64,000 nt of DNA from Nautiliaceae bacterium (GTDB taxonomy: Bacteria > Campylobacterota > Campylobacteria > Campylobacterales > Nautiliaceae), in NCBI GenBank assembly GCA_039831155.1, contig JBDONT010000043.1, forward strand, positions 192,001-256,000. The letters are read 5' to 3'. Below, piece after piece: positions 3,619 to 48,045 of the stretch (positions within the stretch are counted from its first letter, which is position 1; each line of letters begins with the position of its first letter). The notes beneath the pieces are model-generated. The model saw nothing but the letters and a program-made list of their open reading frames with translations, ran no database searches and was not told the origin of the DNA. The position numbers and the translations under genes were made by a program.

Positions 3619-5385
3619 ATGAGAACTCATTACTGTGCCGAAGTAAACGAAAACCTAGTAGGCCAAAAGGTTGAATTAGTAGGATGGGTTAACTCTCACA
3701 GAGACCACGGGGGAGTAATTTTTATAGATTTAAGAGACAGAAGTGGAATAGTTCAGATAGTTGCCGACCCGGCTGATAGCAAAAAAGCTCACAAAGTTGC
3801 AGAAGAGATAAAAGATGAGTATGTATTGAAAGTAAAAGGGTTAGTAAGATTCAGAGGCGAAGGGCTTGAAAACCCGAAACTAAAAACAGGTAAAATAGAA
3901 GTAGTTGCAGAAGAGATAACAATAGAAAACAAAAGCGAAGTTTTACCTTTTCAAATCGGAGATAAAAACGTAAACGAAGAATTAAGACTCAAATACAGAT
4001 ACTTAGACCTAAGAAGTCCAGATATGCTTGAAACTTTTGTTTTAAGAAGTAAAGTTACAAAAGCAATAAGAGACTATTTTGACAAAAACGGATTTATAGA
4101 TGTAGAAACTCCCGTACTTACAAAATCTACACCAGAAGGAGCAAGAGATTATTTAGTTCCAAGCAGGGTTCACCCTGGAGAATTTTATGCACTTCCTCAA
4201 TCACCTCAGCTTTTTAAACAAATCCTAATGGTAGCAGGATTTGACAAATACTATCAAATTGCAAAGTGTTTTAGAGACGAAGACCTAAGAGCAGAGAGAC
4301 AACCAGAGTTCACACAAGTTGATATTGAGATGAGTTTTGTTGAAGAAGACGATGTAATTGAAACAATTGAAGGAATGGTAAAAGAAGCGTTTAAAGTTGC
4401 AGGAATTGACGTAACTCTTCCAATTAAAAGAATGACTTATGCAGAAGCTATGGAGAAATACGGAAGCGATAAGCCAGATTTAAGATTTGATTTGGCAATG
4501 GTAGATGTAATTGATGAATTTGCAGATTCAAACAACGAAATTTTTAGTGCTATTGCAAAAGACAAAAAAAATAACAGATTCAAAGCCCTAAAAGTACCGG
4601 GTGGAGATAAGTTTTACAGCAGAAAAATGCTAAAAGAACTTGAAAATTTTGTTAGAAAATTCGGAGCAAAAGGTCTTGCATATATTCAAGTAAAAGAAGA
4701 AGGATTAAAAGGTCCTATTCTTAAATTTATGAGTGAAAATTCTTTAAATAGGCTAATTGAAAAAGTAAACCCACAAGTTGGAGATATCATCTTTTTTGGT
4801 GCGGGAGATAAAAAAACAGTTCTTGATTATATGGGAAGATTAAGAGTTAAAATTGCAAAAGATATGGGACTTATTAACGAAAATGAGTATAATTTCGTAT
4901 GGATTGTAGATTTTCCTATGTTTGAAAAAGACGACCAAGGCAATCCAACTCCACTTCATCACCCATTCACAATGCCGGATATGGAGACTTGGGATGAAGA
5001 AAACTTTGAAGATATTCAATCAATTGCATACGATTTAGTATGTAACGGATACGAAATCGGTGGTGGAAGTATCAGGATTCATAAAGAAGAGATTCAAGAA
5101 AAAGTATTTAAATTTCTTGGAATTGATGAGATGGAAGCAAGAGAAAAATTTGGATTTTTACTTGATGCATTAAAATTCGGTGCACCACCTCACGGTGGAT
5201 TTGCACTTGGACTTGATAGAGTTATTATGCTTATGAGAAAAACTGATAACATAAGAGATGTTATAGCATTCCCTAAAACTCAAAAAGCTCAGTGTCTATT
5301 AACAGGTGCACCAAGTGAAGTTGACAAATCCCAAATAAAAGAACTTCACATCAGAATCAAAAAACCAAAAGCGGATAATGAATAA
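3619..5385 (+). CDS. aspS: aspartate--tRNA ligase
   Basis: MRTHYC start, [36 protein letters not shown]. Confidence 0.97.
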
Positions 5386-5635
5386 ACAAGTTACGTTAAC
5401 GTTAGCTAATTTAAAAAAAAACGACGTTTTTAAAATTGTAGGATTTGATGAAAGTTGTGGAAATTTTAAACAAAGACTAAATGATTTGGGTTTAGCAAAA
5501 GGTCAAATCGGACAGATTATCAACAAATCTCTTTTCGGTCCGATTGAAATCGACATAGAGGGAAGAAAACTCGCCCTCGGAAGAGGTATGAGTAAAAAAA
5601 TAAAAGTAAAAAAATTTGAATGTCCAATACTATAA
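5378..5635 (+). CDS. feoA: FeoA-family protein
   Basis: 85 aa with RLNDLGL...GPI...LALGRGM pattern. Confidence 0.8.
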
Positions 5636-5646
5636 AAGGAGTCACG

Positions 5647-6225
5647 ATGAAAAAACTGTTTTTAATCATAGGAGCACCGGGAAGTGGAAAAACAACCGAC
5701 GCAGAGCTTATCGCAGAGAGAAACTCTGATAAAATAGTTCACTACTCAACCGGAGATTTACTAAGAGCAGAAGTTGCAAGTGGAAGTGAACTGGGTAAAA
5801 CTATCAAAAGCTACATAGACAACGGGAACTTAGTACCACTTGAAATTGTAATTAACACAATTAAAAGTGCAATTGAAAAAGCACCTAAAGATATCGTTTT
5901 AATTGACGGTTTTCCAAGAAGTGTAGAACAGATGAAAGCACTTGACGAAATGCTTAAAACCAGTGACGATATAGAACTTGTAAGCGTAATTGAAGTTGAG
6001 GTTAGCGAAGACGTAGCACGTGAGAGAGTTTTAGGACGTGCAAGAGGGGCTGATGATAATGAAGAAGTGTTTAATAACAGAATGAAAGTATTTTTAGAAC
6101 CCCTAAAAGATATCGAAGAGTTTTACACTGCCCAAAACAAACTAATTAAAATCAACGGTGAAAGAACTATAGAAGAGATTGTTGAAGAGATGGAAAAAAT
6201 TATTAAAGAAAAAGCAGGAATTTAA
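5647..6225 (+). CDS. adk: adenylate kinase
   Basis: [25 protein letters not shown] at 5647 after AAGGAG. Confidence 0.95.
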
Positions 6226-7393: not shown

Positions 7394-7812
7394 TTTTTTT
7401 CTATCTTCTTTACTTCGATAATCTCAACGTCAATAATTTCATCATCTCCGTAATGAGTATGATGATAATACTTGTGAGAGGGAAAAAGTTTTTTAGCAAA
7501 AAATCTAGCAACTCCTTCAAACATCAATAAAACACCTAAAATATCACTAAAAACCCCCGGTATAAAAAGAAGTATTCCTCCTATTAACCTAAACAACCCT
7601 ATGGACAAAAACTCCTCTTCACTCATTTCTCTTCTTAAAACTCTTTGCATACTTTCAGCCAAAGAAAAATTCAAACTTCTAATTACACTTATACCTATAA
7701 TAGCAGTTAATAAAACTTCCAAAAAAAGCCCAAAAGGCGTAAAAACTTTTGCGAACTCATAAGAAAAAATAATTTCCAAAAACAGATACGCTAAAAAATA
7801 AATTAGTCCCAT
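7390..7812 (-). CDS. fxsA: FxsA-family membrane protein
   Basis: GGILLFIPGVFSDILG and C-terminal IIDVE. Confidence 0.85.
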   Translation of the reverse strand: MGLIYFLAYLFLEIIFSYEFAKVFTPFGLFLEVLLTAIIGISVIRSLNFSLAESMQRVLRREMSEEEFLSIGLFRLIGGILLFIPGVFSDILGVLLMFEGVARFFAKKLFPSHKYYHHTHYGDDEIIDVEIIEVKKIEKN

Positions 7813-8247: not shown

Positions 8248-9972
8248 TTATTTGTTTATTAATTCCATAATTTTCTCAAGAGCCATATCTTTATCAACTT
8301 CAAACTTATCACCCGTTTTTCTGTCCCTAATTTCAACTTTACCACTTTTAAGTTTTTTACCCACAATCACCCCAATAGGAAAACCAACAAGCTCAAAATC
8401 TGCAATTTTTGGACCAAATCTTTCACTTCTATCATCAAGAATAGTTTTAACTCCCGCTTTTTTAAGCTCTTCATATAAATTTGTAGCAAAATCTAATTGC
8501 TCTTCTTTTTTAACATCTCCTACAATTATATCAACCACAAAAGGTGCTATCTCTTTTGGCCAAATTATCCCTTTATCATCGTGATTTTGCTCAATTGCCG
8601 CAGCAATAAGTCTTGATACCCCAATTCCATAACATCCCATAATAAAAGGCTTAGCTTTTCCATTCTCATCAAGAAAAGTTGCATTCATAGGTTCAGAGTA
8701 AACCGTACCAAGCTTAAAGATATGTCCAACTTCAATTCCTTTTGTAATTTTTAAAGGCTTCCCACATTTTGGACACAAATCCCCCTCTTTCACAGCTGCA
8801 ATATCTCTATAAATCGTTAAATTCCCAAGTAGATTTGCATCAAGAAGTCCTGCTCCTTTTATATGATAATCTTTTTTATTTGCTCCACAAACTAACTCTT
8901 CTGCCATTCTTAAATCATCATCAATTACATACTTAATATTGCTTGGAAGTCCAAAAGGTCCAATAAATCCAGGCACAAGTCCCACTTTTTCAAGCTCATC
9001 TTCACTTGCATCAACAAGCTCCAAGGCTCCAACTGCATTTTTTGCTTTTGTCTCTTCTAATGTATCAGTTCCCCTTACAAAAAATACAACTATCTCCTCT
9101 TCTCCATTATCATAAATAGCCTTTTTAGCAACAGCTTTAATACTAAAATAAGGGTCAATTCCTAAAAACTCACAAACTTCTTCTATACTCTTTTTATCCG
9201 GAGTATACACTTCTTCGATTATTTCTGTTTTAATTGGATTTTCTCTTTTTTCGTTTTTTCTTTTTGCAACTTCAATATTTGCCGCATAATTACACTCACT
9301 GCAAACTACTATATCATCTTCTCCTGTATCAGCTAAAACCATAAACTCTTTACTACCTTTTCCACCAATAGCACCGCTATCAGCCTCAACTACTCTAAAA
9401 TCAAGCCCCATTCTTTTAAAAATTTCACTATAAGTCTCTTCCATTAAGTTAAATTCTCTATCCAAATCCTCTTTTGTAGCGTGAAAAGAGTAAGCGTCTT
9501 TCATTATAAATTCACGCCCTCTAAGAAGCCCAAATCTCGGTCTTGCTTCATCTCTAAATTTAAGATTTATTTGATATAAATTAACCGGAAGCTGTTTATA
9601 ACTTTTAATAGTCCCTCTTACTAAATCAACTACACTTTCTTCATTTGTAGGTGAAAGTACAAACTTTTGCCCTTTTCTATCTTCAATTCTTAAAAGCTCA
9701 TCACCATATTTTTTAGCCCTTCCTGTCTCTTCCCATAATTCATATGGAGTAACAAAACTTAGCATCACTTCCTGAGCCCCTGCTTTATCCATCTCTTCTT
9801 TAATTATTGCTCTTATATTATCAAGCACCATCTTCCCAAGAGGTGCAAAATCGTATATTCCGGCTGCGACTTGTTTTATATATCCACCTCTAACTAAATA
9901 TTTATGACTCGGCGTTACTGCATCTTTTGGTGCTTCTTTTAATGTATAAGCAAAAAATCTAGACCATCTCAT
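8248..9972 (-). CDS. proS: proline--tRNA ligase
   Basis: FRDEARPRFGLLRGREF, GIEVGHIFKLG, MGCYGIGVSR; ATG at 9972 after AAGGAG. Confidence 0.97.
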   Translation of the reverse strand: MRWSRFFAYTLKEAPKDAVTPSHKYLVRGGYIKQVAAGIYDFAPLGKMVLDNIRAIIKEEMDKAGAQEVMLSFVTPYELWEETGRAKKYGDELLRIEDRKGQKFVLSPTNEESVVDLVRGTIKSYKQLPVNLYQINLKFRDEARPRFGLLRGREFIMKDAYSFHATKEDLDREFNLMEETYSEIFKRMGLDFRVVEADSGAIGGKGSKEFMVLADTGEDDIVVCSECNYAANIEVAKRKNEKRENPIKTEIIEEVYTPDKKSIEEVCEFLGIDPYFSIKAVAKKAIYDNGEEEIVVFFVRGTDTLEETKAKNAVGALELVDASEDELEKVGLVPGFIGPFGLPSNIKYVIDDDLRMAEELVCGANKKDYHIKGAGLLDANLLGNLTIYRDIAAVKEGDLCPKCGKPLKITKGIEVGHIFKLGTVYSEPMNATFLDENGKAKPFIMGCYGIGVSRLIAAAIEQNHDDKGIIWPKEIAPFVVDIIVGDVKKEEQLDFATNLYEELKKAGVKTILDDRSERFGPKIADFELVGFPIGVIVGKKLKSGKVEIRDRKTGDKFEVDKDMALEKIMELINK

Positions 9973-9985
9973 CAAATCTCCTTTA
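9971..9985. repeat. 15-bp direct repeat, left copy (target-site duplication)
   Basis: ATCAAATCTCCTTTA, identical to 13781-13795. Confidence 0.92.
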
Positions 9986-12017
9986 AATTAATTTCTAATT
10001 CATCACTTAAAAATTCTTTATATTCTTCAAAATCATATCCAAAATAATCACAATATGTTTTTAAAACTTCTTTATCTTCAAAGTTTTCTAAAATATTTAC
10101 ATTACCATCATAAACCTCCCTAGATATTTCCTCTGCTTTTTTTGTAAAATCTTCTTTTAAGTCTCTTTTTTTTAAATATAAAATTACAGTAGTTGTGCCT
10201 GTTTTTCCAAATGTGTTTGTTGGAAGCTTTACAATAGCTTTTATTTCAAAATATTTTAATAAAAGCTCTCTTGTTTTAATAAATAAAGCTGAATTTGTCT
10301 TATCTAAAATGGAAATTGGCAAAATTATAGCAGCTAAACCTTTATCTTTTAATATATGTTTCGTTTTTTCAACAAAAAAACACTCTATTGAATTATTAGT
10401 AGAATATTGTTTAACATCTACAAATTTTGAAAGCTCAAATTTTTCTGTATCTTCTTTTTTTAACGTTTCTAAAAACCCTTTAACACTATAAGGAGGATTT
10501 GAAATTAATACTTCAAATTCATCCTTAACTACATCTTTTTTTAAAGCGTCATCATAAATTATCTCAACTTCATTTCCATACATAAATGAACTTACCTTTG
10601 CCACTTTACTTAATCTATACTCTTTTTCAATACCTACTACTTTTGCTTGTTTATGATTTTTTGCAAATTCATTTAAAAAATGCCCCGCCCCACAAGCATA
10701 ATCTATCATAGACTTATACTCTTTTTTAGGAAGAGATGAGACAATAAACTTAACTATCGGCATTGGTGTAAAAAATTGCCCTTCGTTTTGTTTGATACCC
10801 TGGTCTAAAAAGCCCTCAAACAAATCCCCTAAAAATTGATTTTCTTCGGAATTTGTTAGATAAATATCTTGAAAAAGCAAAACAATTTTTCTTAACACCT
10901 CAAAATTTTGATAAAAAAGCTTTTCATTATGAACTTCAATAAAAGCAAAATCGTTTGTAGTAAAAAATTTTAGTTTTTTAATAGCTTCTTTTACTTTTTC
11001 TTTTATCGTTTCAATCTCAAAAGATTTAAAATATTTTTCTATATCTTGATTATCTATATAGGTAATATCTTCATTCAAAAACTCTTTCATACCCTCTTTA
11101 TAAAGCTTTTGTAATCTATCCTGAAACGAAAACGGGTCATCTATTGCAAAACCTCTCCAAAAAAATTGTAAATTATCAGGATTTTCTTTTTCATCTACTA
11201 TTTTACACAACAAAAGATTTACAAGCTTATCAAACGCATTTTCCCTACCACTTACATTATGAGCTCTTAAAACAGTAGCGAATTTATGATAAATTCCACT
11301 TATATCTTCCTCTTTTACAATTTTTAAATCTTTTAAGGAAAAAACACTCTTTTCAAGTTCATAAGCCCTAAATTCATCATCAAAAAGCCCTCTAATACCC
11401 TCTTTTTTATAAACTTCACTCCAAACTTCAAACAAAGCTTTTGCAATATCTCCAAGCTCTCCTTTTCTAGCTTTTTCATAATTTTTCTCTTTATCTAAAT
11501 TTTCCTCAACATCAATAAGCTTTATTAAAAAATATTTATAATCTAAATTTTCATTACTCGTATAAAGACTTATATATTTAGCACCACTATTAGCAGCATA
11601 AGAGAAAATCTGTCCCCCATCAAGTTGAGTTAATTTCAAAGCTTTTTCATATTCAGCTCCCCATGTCTTACATTCAATAATTACTAACGTTTTATCTTCA
11701 TTATCCTTTATAGCAATATCAGCTTTTCCACTTTTATCAAGGTGCCCTAATCTCCATTCCGGTTCAAGTTCAATATGTTTTGGTAAATACCCTTTATTAA
11801 GCAATCTATAAACGCACTCAAACACTACAAAATTTTCCGGTTTTGAAAAATTTGAGGTGGTTAAGTCATTTACTTTCAATTCATTCGGATAAATAAGCTT
11901 TTCATTGTTAAAATCTGCTTTTAACTCAAAATCTCCAAACTTTTTTATAAAAACATTATCTTTTTCTTCAAAATTAAGTTTTCTTAATACATTTTTAAAA
12001 TTTTCTTTTGTTATCAT
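9972..12017 (-). CDS. N-terminal (endonuclease + m6A methyltransferase) half of a type IIG/IIB R-M-S enzyme
   Basis: PD-(D/E)xK-like ADIAI...IIECK, GQFFTP, motif I DYACGAGHF, motif IV NPPY; resembles the Campylobacter Cj1051c N-terminal region (recalled). Confidence 0.88.
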   Translation of the reverse strand: MITKENFKNVLRKLNFEEKDNVFIKKFGDFELKADFNNEKLIYPNELKVNDLTTSNFSKPENFVVFECVYRLLNKGYLPKHIELEPEWRLGHLDKSGKADIAIKDNEDKTLVIIECKTWGAEYEKALKLTQLDGGQIFSYAANSGAKYISLYTSNENLDYKYFLIKLIDVEENLDKEKNYEKARKGELGDIAKALFEVWSEVYKKEGIRGLFDDEFRAYELEKSVFSLKDLKIVKEEDISGIYHKFATVLRAHNVSGRENAFDKLVNLLLCKIVDEKENPDNLQFFWRGFAIDDPFSFQDRLQKLYKEGMKEFLNEDITYIDNQDIEKYFKSFEIETIKEKVKEAIKKLKFFTTNDFAFIEVHNEKLFYQNFEVLRKIVLLFQDIYLTNSEENQFLGDLFEGFLDQGIKQNEGQFFTPMPIVKFIVSSLPKKEYKSMIDYACGAGHFLNEFAKNHKQAKVVGIEKEYRLSKVAKVSSFMYGNEVEIIYDDALKKDVVKDEFEVLISNPPYSVKGFLETLKKEDTEKFELSKFVDVKQYSTNNSIECFFVEKTKHILKDKGLAAIILPISILDKTNSALFIKTRELLLKYFEIKAIVKLPTNTFGKTGTTTVILYLKKRDLKEDFTKKAEEISREVYDGNVNILENFEDKEVLKTYCDYFGYDFEEYKEFLSDELEINLKEI

Positions 12018-12026
12018 TTAAAGCCT

Positions 12027-13781
12027 TTATAAGTATTTCCTTAAAATCTCTTCTTTTTGAGTTTTAGCAGAATTTATAATCTCTTCATTAGCCCTAATTC
12101 TTTTTTCAAGTTTTTCAATCTGTTTTACTATTTCTTGTTGAACTTCAATAGGTGGAAGAGGGATTTTTAGGTTTTCATAAAAATTTATTGGTACTCTTTT
12201 ATGACCACTTGCACCAGTCATAACCTGTTGAGCTTGTTTGCGTATTTGTTCTCTATTTAGAAAATAAAACAAATATCCATTATCCAAATCATTATCTTTT
12301 ACTCTAAAAACATGAAACTCGCTACTTCCAAAAGCTATATTGTTTTTTAAATTTCTAGCAATGGCACATTTTCCATTTTCCATAGAGGGAGTAATTTTTG
12401 CAATAATTATGTCGTTTTCTCTAAAATATGTATAACTTCCCTTTTTTAATTCTTTTAATTTTTTAATATCTTGCTTTTTTATATATCCATTTTCACTAAC
12501 ATATTCCATCGGTATAAAAGAAACTTCTAAATTCTCATCTAAATTAGCTATCTCTTTTTTAGAAGGATTAAATAATACTAAATCTTTTAATAAAACACTT
12601 TTTTCTTTTACATTATTTATTATTTCTTCAATTTCTCTTTTTAATTTAACATTTTCTTCTTTTAACTTTTCAACTTTTTCATCGATTTCACTGCACTCTT
12701 TTACTATATTTTCTTGGATTTTTCTTTCTACTAAAGGTATTTGAATATTCAAATAATCATCCATCTGCAAATTTTTTATATTACTCATACCTGTTTGCAT
12801 ATCAAAAGTAAATCCTTGATTGTAAACATAATCTAAAAGCAAAAACAAAAATTTACTCTTAAATCTATTATTTTTTAGTCTCAGTCTAACCATAAAGTTT
12901 GAAAATGTATATCCCTTCTCTTTTAAATCAAAATACATTACCCTACCAACTGCCTGATGAGAGCTACCACCTGACTTTTCTAAAATAATATCACCCTCTT
13001 TTAACTCCCTATTTCTAAACTGCTTTTCTTCTACTTGCAACCCTTTTACATCTGAAAAATCTATATTATTAGAAGTATCTCCAAAATTGGTATTTCTTAA
13101 AACTTTTGCCTTAATAAAAGGAGGCTTTTTACCTTCCCATAATCCTCCTATTGTATCTACAATATTACCAAGCTTTATATTTTGATATTTTTCGCTTAAT
13201 TTAACTACAACTTTTGGTTTTAACCTAATAACCTTATTAAATTCACTCTCTTTAATATCAAGCATATCGGTTAGATTATAAACTTTTACAAATTTTTGCA
13301 AATCTTCACTAATTCTAAACTCTTTATCTTCTAAAAAGTTCCTGATTATTACGTTTAATTTATTCTCATCATCTAAATTTTTCGGATTATATAGAGGAGT
13401 TTGGATATTGTTTATACTTTTTATATTTTGAAGGGTTCTTTTCTCATCTTCATCAAGTTCTTCTTTAATCTCTACGTTAGAGATATATTTTATTCCCTCA
13501 TTTCCCTTCGCACTACTCCACTCATACCCTAAAAATTTTTTTATCTCATTTGTTTTATTAGGTGAATTTATTACTAATGTTTTTTGATTGTAAGTTAATA
13601 AAAAGTATAAAAATTTTTCTCTTTCTCTCTCTTTTACAAACTTCCTAAACTCTTTATTTTCTATTTTTTCTTGCTCTTCTTTACTTAGTTCTTTATATTT
13701 TTTTCTACTTCTTCTATCTTTTGTAGATTTTAAATTTTCAAATTTTTTTTTATACTCCTTCAACATATCTTTAAAACCCAA
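12027..13781 (-). CDS. C-terminal half of the same enzyme: MTase tail plus HsdS-like specificity region (two TRDs)
   Basis: KKFLGYEWS segment, then two TRDs each ending in a conserved helix (IPLVERKIQENIV; IPLPPIEVQQEIV); TTG start 6 nt after AAGGAG. Confidence 0.88.
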   Translation of the reverse strand: MGFKDMLKEYKKKFENLKSTKDRRSRKKYKELSKEEQEKIENKEFRKFVKEREREKFLYFLLTYNQKTLVINSPNKTNEIKKFLGYEWSSAKGNEGIKYISNVEIKEELDEDEKRTLQNIKSINNIQTPLYNPKNLDDENKLNVIIRNFLEDKEFRISEDLQKFVKVYNLTDMLDIKESEFNKVIRLKPKVVVKLSEKYQNIKLGNIVDTIGGLWEGKKPPFIKAKVLRNTNFGDTSNNIDFSDVKGLQVEEKQFRNRELKEGDIILEKSGGSSHQAVGRVMYFDLKEKGYTFSNFMVRLRLKNNRFKSKFLFLLLDYVYNQGFTFDMQTGMSNIKNLQMDDYLNIQIPLVERKIQENIVKECSEIDEKVEKLKEENVKLKREIEEIINNVKEKSVLLKDLVLFNPSKKEIANLDENLEVSFIPMEYVSENGYIKKQDIKKLKELKKGSYTYFRENDIIIAKITPSMENGKCAIARNLKNNIAFGSSEFHVFRVKDNDLDNGYLFYFLNREQIRKQAQQVMTGASGHKRVPINFYENLKIPLPPIEVQQEIVKQIEKLEKRIRANEEIINSAKTQKEEILRKYL

Positions 13782-13795
13782 TCAAATCTCCTTTA
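13781..13795. repeat. 15-bp direct repeat, right copy
   Basis: ATCAAATCTCCTTTA; on minus includes the end of the S4-domain gene (AAG GAG ATT TGA). Confidence 0.92.
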
Positions 13796-14033
13796 CGTAT
13801 TCTGTTTTTCTACTCTTTGGAATAGTCTTAGTCTCCGGTATTCGCAATACTTCGTATTTTTTAACGCCGCTTAAATAGTGAATTTCTATTATATCACCTA
13901 CTTTTACATCTTTAGCCGGTTTTGCTTTTTTTCCATTTATAAAAACAACGCCCTCTTTACACATCTCATCGGCTATTGAGCGTCTTTTTACGATATTAAC
14001 CGCATTTAAAAACTTATCTATCCTCAAACTCAT
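13782..14033 (-). CDS. S4-domain RNA-binding protein (YabO/RqcP/Hsp15-like)
   Basis: LRIDKFL...KRRSIA...INGKKAKPAKDVKVGD. Confidence 0.88.
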   Translation of the reverse strand: MSLRIDKFLNAVNIVKRRSIADEMCKEGVVFINGKKAKPAKDVKVGDIIEIHYLSGVKKYEVLRIPETKTIPKSRKTEYVKEI

Positions 14034-41147: not shown

Positions 41148-42550
41148 TACTCTTCCAGTTCCTTTAGTGTCGTTACAAGAGCCTGAAGTTTGTTTTTAAC
41201 CTCTTTATACTCAAATTTCTCTTTAGAATCGGCTACAACTCCGGCACCTGCTTGGAAAATAATCTCATCTCCTTTAATCAGTGCCGTTCTTATGGTAATA
41301 GCCGTATCCATATTGCCGTCAAACCCAAAATACCCGATACTTCCGGCATAATAGCCTCTTTTTAATCCTTCATATTTTGCAATAAGCTCCATTGCTTTAA
41401 TTTTTGGAGCTCCGGTCATCGTTCCTGCCGTAAAAGTCGCTTTAAATAAATCAAACATATCGTATTTATCATCAAGTTCTCCTACAACATCACTTACCAT
41501 ATGCATAACGTGAGAATATCTCTCAACTCTCATAAGTTCCTCAACCTTTACACTTCCGGCTTTACTTACACGCCCTACGTCGTTTCTTCCCAAATCTACA
41601 AGCATAATGTGTTCTGCCACTTCTTTTGGGTCATTAATCATCTCTTCTTCAAGTTCCAAATCTCTTTTTAAATTCTCTCCTCTTTTTCTAGTCCCGGCAA
41701 TCGGTCTTAAAAGAATCATATTATCGTTTAATCTAACCATAACTTCCGGAGAACTTCCAATAATTGCAAAACCGTCAATATCTAAAAAGTAAAGATAAGG
41801 AGAAGGATTTTTACTTCTAAGTTTTCTATAAAACGAAAACCTATCTACAATCGCTTTTACTTTTAATCTATTAGATAAAACTATCTGAAAAATATCTCCG
41901 TTTTTTATATGTTCTTTCGCAACTCTTACCATTTCAAAAAATTTCTCTTGAGAAAAAACAAATTTAGGTTCTTTTAAAATTTTGGCTTTTTTTAACGGCA
42001 GATGTTTATAAGAAGAGTTAATCACATCCTTTATAATATAAAGATAGTCTTTATAGCTTTCATCATTAATAATAACCGTTAATTCCGATGATTTATGAGA
42101 AAAACCCAAAACGATTTTAGGTCTTATCATATAAAAATCAGGTATATCGGTTTCGTCTTTTAAATTATCCATTACATTTTTTAAAACCGGCTCAAACACT
42201 TTTACCATATCATAACCGATATACCCTACAAATCCGTCTACAAAGCCTATTTTTAATTTTTTTGCAATCTCTTTGTAAGAATTAAAATCAATTTTTTTAT
42301 AATACTCTTTCATAAAAGAAAAAGGGTCTGTATTAAAAACTTTCTCTTCTTTTCCGTCAAAATAATATGTCTTTTCATCTTTGTATTTAATTCTTTCTCT
42401 CTCTCCTACAAACAAAAACGTATAATTTCCGTCACTGTTATTAATAACGCTTTCAAATAAAAAAAGTCTCTCATTTTTAAAAAGAGTTTTTATTTGGTTG
42501 TAAATGGTAATCGGAAAAAATTCATCCACTAAAAACTTATCGTAAACCAT
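41147..42550 (-). CDS. trpE: anthranilate synthase component I
   Basis: NPSPY, GSSPE, PIAGT, EHIMLVDLGRND, TGAPK. Confidence 0.92.
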   Translation of the reverse strand: MVYDKFLVDEFFPITIYNQIKTLFKNERLFLFESVINNSDGNYTFLFVGERERIKYKDEKTYYFDGKEEKVFNTDPFSFMKEYYKKIDFNSYKEIAKKLKIGFVDGFVGYIGYDMVKVFEPVLKNVMDNLKDETDIPDFYMIRPKIVLGFSHKSSELTVIINDESYKDYLYIIKDVINSSYKHLPLKKAKILKEPKFVFSQEKFFEMVRVAKEHIKNGDIFQIVLSNRLKVKAIVDRFSFYRKLRSKNPSPYLYFLDIDGFAIIGSSPEVMVRLNDNMILLRPIAGTRKRGENLKRDLELEEEMINDPKEVAEHIMLVDLGRNDVGRVSKAGSVKVEELMRVERYSHVMHMVSDVVGELDDKYDMFDLFKATFTAGTMTGAPKIKAMELIAKYEGLKRGYYAGSIGYFGFDGNMDTAITIRTALIKGDEIIFQAGAGVVADSKEKFEYKEVKNKLQALVTTLKELEE

Positions 42551-46651: not shown

Positions 46652-47170
46652 TTATGTAATTTTAACATTTTTAGTGATTTTTTCTAAATCTTGAGGTGTT
46701 ATATTAATAACTTTTTTCCCCGTCTTTACCAAAATAGGAAAAATCATACTATTAGAAATATACGGCTTCAACTTTTCATTAATAAAAGCCACTTGAGAAA
46801 GCATTGCGACTATTACACTTACAAGCAAAAAAAACTTAGCCCCGGCAAATAAAAATCCTAAGCTCTTATCAAGCCACCCTAAAGCACTGATTTTTAATAT
46901 TTTCCCAAGTAAATATCCTATAAAAACACTCACAACCCAAAATCCGAAAAAAACCGCTATAAAACCAACTAGAGAAATCGCAGATTTATTAGGGATTTGA
47001 AAAAGATTTTCGTTGATGTAAACTCCGGCCTGGGAATAAAACTTAGAAGCTAAAATCAAACCTCCTATAATCCCTACAAGCCCGGCTATCTCCTTTACAA
47101 CTCCGTTAAAAAAACCTCTTATCGCCAAAAGTAACGTAATAACAATAATAATCGCATCAAAATAGTTCAT
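46652..47170 (-). CDS. CvpA-family membrane protein
   Basis: MNYFD...RGF..G..KE, LDK.LG..F. Confidence 0.85.
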   Translation of the reverse strand: MNYFDAIIIVITLLLAIRGFFNGVVKEIAGLVGIIGGLILASKFYSQAGVYINENLFQIPNKSAISLVGFIAVFFGFWVVSVFIGYLLGKILKISALGWLDKSLGFLFAGAKFFLLVSVIVAMLSQVAFINEKLKPYISNSMIFPILVKTGKKVINITPQDLEKITKNVKIT

Positions 47171-47171
47171 T

Positions 47172-48045
47172 TTATTCCTTTACAACAAAAGTATTTTTAG
47201 TTTTTTTTAGCTTCTCTTAAAGCTTCATCCGCTTTTTGAAGAAAGCTATCCGCATCATATCCTTTTTTACATACCGTCATACCACCGGATAAAGACAATT
47301 TTATAAAATCTTCTTTATACTTAAAAGAAGTTTTATTTATCTTTTCTAAAGTATTTTTCATTACTTTTTTTGCATCGTTTATTGATGTACAATTAAAAAT
47401 TATAACAAATTCATTCCCTCCGTATCTACAAACAATTTCTCCTTTTTTCAAAAAATTTTTTAAAATTTCCGCTATTTTAATCAAAACGAAATCTCCCACC
47501 AAATGACCGTAAATTTCATTTACTTTTTTGAACTCATCCAAATCCACAATAGCCAATATAAAATTCGAATCGTTTATTTTTTCATTTAAAAATTTTCTTA
47601 AGGCTTTGGAATTATAAACTCTTGTTAAAGGGTCTATTAAAAGCTCTTTATAAGCTTTGTTTAACTCTTTTTCAAGTTCGCATATAGTGTGCTCTAATTT
47701 ATTGATTTTATCAATCAAAGAACCGCTAAATTTTAAAATTAAAGCTTTAATTTCATCAACTTCAATAGGTTCTATTTTTTCGACAAACTCTTTTGAATGT
47801 TCTTTTATCTCTTTTGAAATGGTTGAAATTTCTTTAATATTTAAAGCGGTTTTATTTAAAAACTCTTCATTAAATTCATCAATACACATAAGTTTAGGAT
47901 TCAGTTCATCAAAAATCCCCTCCTTTTTTGCAAGCTCTACAAACACGTTTCTATAATAAAAAGAATAAAAAGGATACGGGGCTTTGTGAGCCTTTTTCAA
48001 TTCTTCAAGCACTTTTTGAGAAATTTTTAAAATAATTTCTTCCAT
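47172..48045 (-). pseudogene. degenerate GGDEF-domain protein with a 3' frameshift
   Basis: DPLT, DLDEFKKVN.YGH..GD, RYGGNEF; ORF stops at 47197 after an A8 run, whereas A7 would extend it (KTKNTFVVKE*) to 47172. Confidence 0.65.

Follow-up and report, generated by a model that had tools for sequence, protein, structure and literature searches.

AloI, CjeI and Cj1051c are single-chain restriction-modification-specificity (R-M-S) enzymes. Type IIB enzymes are known in two forms, either as a restriction-modification (RM) fusion protein accompanied by a specificity (S) protein or as one fused RMS chain, as parts of PMC11997821 describe. RM genes can also insert with duplication of their target, and the main-text parts of PMC2853133 (Furuta, Abe and Kobayashi 2010) describe such insertions, including in Campylobacter, in operon-like structures and between repeats spanning starts and stops. 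Here we analyse a window of 64,000 nucleotides (the whole stretch of DNA studied, positions 192,001 to 256,000 of contig JBDONT010000043.1, assembly GCA_039831155.1, from a Nautiliaceae bacterium), in which a 3,795-bp insert lies between an S4-domain gene and proS, flanked by two copies of a 15-bp direct repeat. By family, the insert is a single-chain type IIB-like R-M-S gene, with nuclease, N6-adenine methylase and two target-recognition domains (TRDs). However, its domains are not arranged in one polypeptide in R-M-S order: they are divided between two open reading frames (ORFs), and the S part comes first. The likely history, in our view, is that a circular intermediate of unit length was opened within its coding sequence, entered this site while duplicating 15 bp of the target, and thereby gave rise to a split enzyme that works. 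RM insertion with target duplication and fused or two-subunit type IIB enzymes were already known; the rotated unit-length cargo is the newly described variant. Earlier RM target duplications are long, tens to hundreds of bp. A non-exhaustive literature search, with supplements outside it, turned up no earlier case of a rotated gene of unit length that had inserted with target duplication.

The features of the locus, all on the minus strand and given in the direction of transcription, are these:

14033..13782, minus: S4-domain gene, 83 aa, a target-site gene, upstream of the insert
13781..13795, minus: left 15-bp repeat copy, minus-strand reading TAAAGGAGATTTGAT
9986..13780, minus: insert, 3,795 bp (3 x 1,265)
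13781..12027, minus: ORF A (P0001), 584 aa plus stop, TTG start
13182..13781, minus: ORF A residues 1-200, by alignment the C-terminal half of the methylase knob, a beta-strand (residues ~66-75) and a linker
12030..13181, minus: ORF A residues 201-584, two HsdS-like TRDs and conserved helices
12015..12029, minus: internal junction TAAAGGCTTTAAATG, comprising the ORF A stop, a 9-nt spacer and the ORF B ATG; kept in the metagenome contig L155 described below
12017..9972, minus: ORF B (P0002), 681 aa plus stop, with nuclease, helical connector, N6-adenine methylase core and, by alignment, the N-terminal half of the knob
11571..11810, minus: PD-(D/E)xK nuclease region, ORF B residues 70-149 (PF13588)
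10044..10841, minus: N6_Mtase domain, ORF B residues 393-658 (PF02384, E 7.3e-31)
9971..9985, minus: right 15-bp repeat copy, holding the end of ORF B and the proS ribosome-binding site
9975..8248, minus: proS, 575 aa, the other target-site gene, downstream of the insert

The repeat ATCAAATCTCCTTTA is exact at 9971-9985 and 13781-13795. In the entire 1,530,382-bp genome its reverse complement occurs at two places, both flanking the insert (reversed control, 0), so that the segment 9986-13780, delimited by an identical 15-mer in an earlier sequence-only reading of the window, was confirmed together with its two ORFs, C-terminal half before N-terminal half. On the minus strand, the 15-mer consists of the final codons and TGA of the S4 gene plus the Shine-Dalgarno sequence of proS. 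In the left copy, these codons and stop still end the S4 gene and the Shine-Dalgarno sequence now serves ORF A, whose TTG start, 6 nt after AGGAG, is formed by the last base of the repeat and the first two bases of the insert. The right copy gives ORF B its last three codons (KEI) and its TGA stop, and gives proS its ribosome-binding site. The gene order is thus S4-domain gene, ORF A, ORF B, proS; ORF A, ORF B and the S4 frame share a single phase. The insert has a guanine-cytosine (GC) content of 24.5-27.8%, against 30-35% in the flanks. Outside the 15-mer the two flanks are alike at 11 of 20 positions, which is weak. Three more sites in the window lie within two mismatches of the 15-mer (41262-41276, 47055-47069 and 47303-47317; 0.72 expected) and are probably other ribosome-site/start contexts. 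As near-matches to such sequences are common, only the exact repeats carry weight.

Relatives retain the site without the insert. In G011 (L007) the S4 tail, the 15-mer and the proS start are letter-identical to the window minus the insert and one repeat copy, and the S4 TGA overlaps the proS ATG, which is the native junction that the sequence-only reading had expected on deleting the segment. The S4 protein is present in 37 of the 41 genomes searched. Fourteen loci of relatives hold both the S4 gene and the proS start; the two genes abut or overlap in nine of them, bearing out the predicted empty site, and the other five, plus the same-genus G001, hold different DNA at the junction. The same-genus G004 has an empty site. 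The locus therefore resembles the insertions described in the main-text parts of PMC2853133: direct repeats flank the RM unit and span a stop and a start, relatives have an empty site, the target is operon-like, the lineage is epsilonproteobacterial and the unit contains no mobility gene. It differs from them in that the cargo is a rotated single gene of exact unit length and the duplication is only 15 bp, and a permuted cargo is not mentioned in those main-text parts. A single-gene cargo that is rotated and exactly of unit length implies a ring.

The rotation becomes evident on comparison with fused homologs. Eighteen matches to ORF B within the same order lie in unbroken frames of 1,232-1,517 aa, and 454 fused relatives of at least 1,023 aa were listed in the long-protein search. 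When species genomes were scanned, the tail of B was followed immediately and in frame by the head of A at 76 of 80 loci, the exceptions being two Gracilibacteria contigs that break under table 11, one broken gene and one cut by a contig end. The S part stood upstream of the RM part at none of the 80 loci, so the order seen in the window is not the norm of the family, in keeping with the sequence-only reading. In a homolog of 1,260 aa, B 1-675 corresponds to residues 1-691 and A 4-584 to residues 697-1260, and other full-length homologs behave alike. The join was tested by separate BLASTP alignments of ORF A and ORF B against 53 full-length database proteins, the joined sequence itself not being built. 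In 52 usable cases, with both alignments reaching the join, the gap at the rejoined position is zero for 47 homologs; extrapolated gaps of -14, -14, -12, -4 and +8 were obtained for the remaining five. The rejoined frame of 678 + 583 = 1,261 codons, proposed beforehand, is thus collinear with full-length homologs (~1,250 aa). A Leu codon was cut behind its first base and is rebuilt as TTA in B and as the TTG start in A. The zero-gap join and the single R-M-S frame order of the homologs together mean that the insert, with its 1,261 codons, TAA stop and 9-nt spacer, is exactly one rotated gene unit. An ordinary fused paralog also exists in the same genome outside the window (G000:C35:66150-68156), in a 1,232-aa frame 41% identical to ORF B.

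The proteins themselves are typical of the family. The PF13588 match in ORF B is borderline (24.8 bits against a cut-off of 25; E 2.5e-5), and this region aligns with the nuclease region of BsaXI; D100, E115 and K117 are invariant across 54 aligned sequences. In the methylase, NPPY occupies residues 507-510, with N507, P508 and P509 invariant and Y510 nearly so. All family-invariant columns, including these, are retained in the window copy. The best solved sequence relative of ORF B is the RM subunit of type IIB BsaXI (PDB 8w0p; E 4.1e-25). PF01420 matches ORF A in two stretches (E 1.6e-22), HsdS structures match it too, and no family model matched its N-terminal ~200 residues, the counterparts of which directly follow the methylase core in homologs. 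The domain set and family are those of the RMS fusion group, as modelled in parts of the cryo-EM study of BsaXI (PMC11997821), with identity of up to 72% in the RM part; shared features are the PD-(D/E)xK nuclease, a gamma-type N6-adenine methylase with a knob, and the arrangement TRD1-CR1-TRD2-CR2 (CR, conserved region). Unlike single-chain R-M-S enzymes, here there are two polypeptides, the S part is first and the chain appears to be broken inside the knob. An RM fusion protein with a separate specificity protein is also the composition of the two-subunit type IIB enzymes BsaXI and BcgI. The split here, in contrast, arose by rotating a fused gene.

The same insertion is found in other lineages. 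A 92%-identical protein sharing the start residue led to the 10-kb metagenome contig L155, in which the order is S4, A, B, proS; its two outer junctions and its internal junction are those of the window, apart from one base in the right repeat copy. A second metagenome contig, L156, and the same-genus G005 carry a remnant in the same order. Since these junctions recur in independent assemblies, misassembly is excluded, and that possibility, left to be checked by the sequence-only reading, can be set aside. Read mining was done on Logan contigs of metagenomes (the words present in the best run amount to a share of 0.28); contigs from runs X2 and X3 bridge position 9985|9986. The insertion is therefore common to at least three lineages and is decaying in two; it is neither private to this genome nor recent.

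Substitution rates between the window and L155 were estimated by the Nei-Gojobori method, with dS the synonymous divergence and dN/dS the ratio of nonsynonymous to synonymous divergence:

A (residues 1-331): dS 0.50, dN/dS 0.070
B: dS 0.39, dN/dS 0.069
S4: dS 1.42, dN/dS 0.050
proS: dS 1.20, dN/dS 0.055

As the permuted layout is common to both copies, the constraint acted after permutation, and purifying selection on both halves argues that the split enzyme probably works and is no wreck. Nucleotide identity between window and L155 is 91-95% within the insert and 78-87% outside it. In a three-taxon comparison, insert and flanks gave identical topologies, with the L155 branch halved in the insert, which fits a single old insertion.

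Where the chain was broken matters for function. B residue 623 aligns with BsaXI residue 626, at which, according to parts of PMC11997821, a multi-helical knob begins, which interrupts the methylase fold between its last two strands. From this alignment, ORF B would end ~55 residues into the knob, and ORF A starts with what aligns as the remainder of the knob followed by a strand. On this evidence the break lies inside a domain rather than between domains. It has also been described, in the same parts of PMC11997821, that the BsaXI RM subunit bears the entire methylase fold, knob and paddle; here, the S-part protein would contain one strand of the methylase sheet as well as half of the knob. 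We hypothesize that ORF A completes the knob, contributes a beta-strand to the ORF B methylase sheet and also carries the DNA-recognition domains. A structural model of the complex of B 380-681 with A 1-200 scored 0.89 (best of three controls, 0.00), with at least 77% contact agreement between runs, a partner predicted local distance difference test (pLDDT) value of at least 71 and the tightest predicted contacts between B 592-596 and A 68-71. In calibration, 58 of 80 solved complexes attained the 0.89 mark, as did 2 of 110 mismatched pairs, counts that hold only roughly here as the model used the analysis's own alignments. Both chains derive from one gene, which has a solved relative in BsaXI, and passing this mark therefore denotes likeness and not proof of binding. 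Taking together the dN/dS values, the kept invariant residues, the TTG start and ribosome site conserved in L155, and the complex model, we think that ORF A and ORF B probably reassemble as a working two-subunit enzyme, in the manner of two-subunit type IIB systems.

Regarding the mechanism, the incoming DNA would have been a non-replicating 3,795-bp ring, or else a unit-length cut of a head-to-tail concatemer. The ring would have been closed 9 nt past the stop codon, its closure point being the present internal junction (12015..12029). It would then have broken once, with flush ends, within the methylase knob, and the opened ring would have been joined to a target break staggered by 15 nt by an enzyme encoded outside the insert. 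By such a route, the duplicated target copy could supply ORF A with a ribosome-binding site and, together with the first two bases of the insert, with a TTG start, and could supply ORF B with three codons and a stop, no ancestral residue being lost. The cargo is of unit length and rotated, the target is duplicated and no bases are lost at the join; two independent breaks in a tandem array would yield exactly one period by chance only about once in the unit length, roughly. The internal junction, a 15-nt sequence of stop, ribosome site and ATG, is the expected scar of excision between repeats at an earlier junction of that kind. A search for such a previous residence with TAAAGGCTTTAAATG gave 30 matches in 28 of 400 other genomes of the order (reversed control, 0), mostly directly before ATG starts and none at S4/proS. 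These are unrelated instances of a common ribosome-site context, and the candidate was rejected. The sequence-only reading had already proposed the insertion of a rotated ring, and each of its testable predictions held. We share its view as the likely one, amended as to the age of the event, the break inside a domain, the selection on both halves and the scope of the integrase search.

Circular permutation is ordinarily explained by duplication or by fission and fusion, the standard models in the parts of PMC3320104 that treat them. Permutation models are usually inferred from end states, whereas here the DNA event itself is kept. As in circular permutation, one ancestral sequence has been rotated, and the swapped independent halves are the intermediate that the fission-and-fusion model requires. 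Unlike in known permuted proteins, the DNA event is preserved (both junctions, target duplication and empty site) and the halves are not re-fused: the two ORFs are in frame, parted only by TAA, two sense codons and TAA, so only two stop codons keep the pair from being one circularly permuted chain. The empty site, the 15-bp duplication, both junctions and the rotated unit-length copy constitute direct evidence for a ring (or unit-length) intermediate. In a single event, a fused R-M-S enzyme became two genes in swapped order with no residue lost. Purifying selection suggests that cutting the chain within a folded domain has not abolished the activity of the enzyme, in which case nature has carried out a split-protein experiment on a type IIB enzyme. 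For the question of how RM and toxin-antitoxin genes move without a recombinase of their own, the locus provides both a precise case and a hotspot.

Several other histories could be considered. Permutation by duplication, the classical model for permuted methyltransferases (in the parts of PMC3320104 and PMC2853133 dealing with it), would have tandem copies arise here or in a donor, after which copy 1 lost its front and copy 2 its back. A tight tandem duplication would be expected to leave just such a head-to-tail arrangement of stop, 9 nt and ATG. Nevertheless, the two deletions would have to be independent and yet end at the same codon position, precisely at the repeat boundaries, and exactly one period is left, with the zero-codon gap noted above and no partial extra copy in the insert. 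Moreover, no tandem copy was met in 122 homolog loci, whose neighbour scan sought S4 and proS only. The internal junction differs at several positions from the outer repeats, which are identical at 15 of 15, and consequently was not derived from them in situ. Thus, unlike permutation by tandem duplication, for which we see very little probability, the window locus points to a ring. Integration by an att-like recombination is also improbable, if slightly less so. In that case a 3,810-bp ring with the 15-mer between its RM and S parts would have recombined at an identical chromosomal 15-mer, by short homology or by a site-specific enzyme acting in trans, and the repeats would not be a target duplication. 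The S4/proS junction sequence is indeed conserved across the family, different cargoes sit between similar repeats at this same junction, and divergence at neutral sites is lower in the insert than in its flanks, as would fit an excised ring re-integrating later in other lineages. However, the homologs lack 15 extra bases at this point and the join is gapless without any repeat copy. As the homologs are gapless, the 15-mer would itself have to be an earlier insertion in the gene, which only moves the original event one step back. A homology of 15 bp is also very short for RecA-type recombination, which counts against this history.

A different doubt concerns function rather than origin: the enzyme could have been destroyed on arrival, its ORFs being open only because little time has elapsed. 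A break placed inside a folded domain and the broken copies in two of three lineages would agree with such a relic. We regard it as unlikely, since the two copies with intact B already differ by a synonymous divergence of 0.39-0.50 with a dN/dS of 0.07 in both halves, like the essential flanking genes. In addition, 1,265 codons are still open in AT-rich DNA, all family-invariant residues are retained, and the TTG start and ribosome-binding site of ORF A are kept in L155 and mutated in the remnant. Finally, an assembly artefact, or a natural two-gene family in S-then-RM order, has hardly any probability. Apart from the proteins P0026, P0061 and P0247, which start or end near the break, no support for it was found; the same junctions occur in four assemblies, the S part is upstream at none of the 80 loci, P0061 is a fragment of a 1,247-aa gene, and only two clusters (the window protein and the L155 protein) reach at least 90% identity to B among 205 hits, with the B tail as query. 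The short database proteins with a start near the break are P0026, P0060, P0061 and P0038. P0061 was considered as a natural split and rejected, as its 90%-identity cluster includes the 1,247-aa protein. P0247 (691 aa, on a 3,220-bp contig) is a 42%-identical RM-part protein the end of which aligns with the break point; this may be a truncation at the contig end or a second split at the same place.

Some observations nonetheless weigh against insertion of an opened ring that yielded a working enzyme. Searches for Phage_integrase, Cas1, Y1 transposase and rve gave no match on the contig of the window (C20), so the statement of the sequence-only reading that the window encodes no recombinase stands for these four families; tyrosine recombinases (four), Cas1 (two genes) and a single Y1 transposase are encoded elsewhere in the genome. 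No terminal inverted repeats were seen: of 160 inverted pairs, the 25 longest include none that connects one end of the insert with the other, and microhomology at the junctions does not exceed 1 nt. We found no close unpermuted donor or relative and no ring; the closest full-length relatives show 68-72% identity to B and no more than 55% to the head of A. Regarding function, the pass of the complex model may reflect likeness to BsaXI and not binding by this particular copy, and the low dN/dS averages the whole history of both copies, being no proof of present activity. In L155, ORF A has a frameshift from a 7-bp tandem duplication, with loss of TRD2, and in L156 and G005 only a remnant of ~800 bp with four internal deletions is left, so selection has not been universal. 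Fourfold-site differences are 0.25-0.27 in the insert and 0.49-0.54 in the flanks at similar GC content of third codon positions (GC3), which may reflect vertical descent or a later transfer between lineages. With these points taken into account, we hold the DNA event to be well supported and a working split enzyme to be probable.

Within this family, the S4/proS overlap acts as a hotspot for insertions. In G013 (L012 1012-1501) a RelE/ParE-type module lies there between exact 14-bp repeats, and in G020 (L008 299-903) a PIN-type module lies between 17-bp repeats with one mismatch. The same-genus G001 (L010, L178) holds at this place a 7.7-kb block with RadC, type I hsdM and more, with imperfect repeats, and L156 (10526-10620) and G005 have an additional 80-bp mini-ORF. 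In the window, G013 and G020, the last inserted ORF reads into the duplicated S4 tail and stops there. It is tempting to propose a general, as yet undescribed route independent of any element-encoded recombinase, by which selfish ORF-sized RM and toxin-antitoxin cassettes would leave stop/start junctions as rings, closing at a stop, ribosome-site and ATG scar, and would enter other such junctions with a duplication of ~15 bp, S4/proS being a hotspot; we regard this as speculative and rather doubtful. If it were true, the mid-gene opening of the present cassette would prove the ring and would create a two-subunit architecture in one step. A repeat-flanked cassette as a general entity was looked for with the PIN module of G020 and rejected: its single family relative (G003, 43% identity, between gyrB and queF) shares only 6 nt at the ends. 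Likewise, S4 or proS lies beside homologs of the RM gene at none of the 122 loci except those of the window itself and G005, and no flanking repeats were seen around full-length homologs in 11 loci inspected.

The individual copies have undergone further changes. No ring junction was among the joints listed from the Logan contigs. A joint from 10000 to 13781, skipping 3,780 bases, appears in one short contig each of X2 and X4, with 29 letters on the shorter side and 88% likeness, and places the last 15 nt of the insert directly onto the left repeat copy; as a product of near-complete deletion or of excision it is too weak, the sequence between the two sides not being known, and it was discarded. 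In L155 (positions 4870-6108 and ~7440-7510), a DUF3800 gene (318 aa) with a hairpin-like inverted repeat lies exactly between the stop of A and the ribosome site of B, and an in-frame 72-bp tandem duplication in ORF B repeats the region of the S-adenosylmethionine (SAM)-binding motif. In the G005 assembly, the proS start occurs twice, once on each side of a 100-N gap. The remnant of L156 (9813-10620) and of G005 (L074) consists of five pieces in their original order, and at its deletion joints the neighbouring alignments overlap by 8-9 nt in three of the four cases and by 2 nt in the fourth, which suggests that the deletions arose between short repeats.

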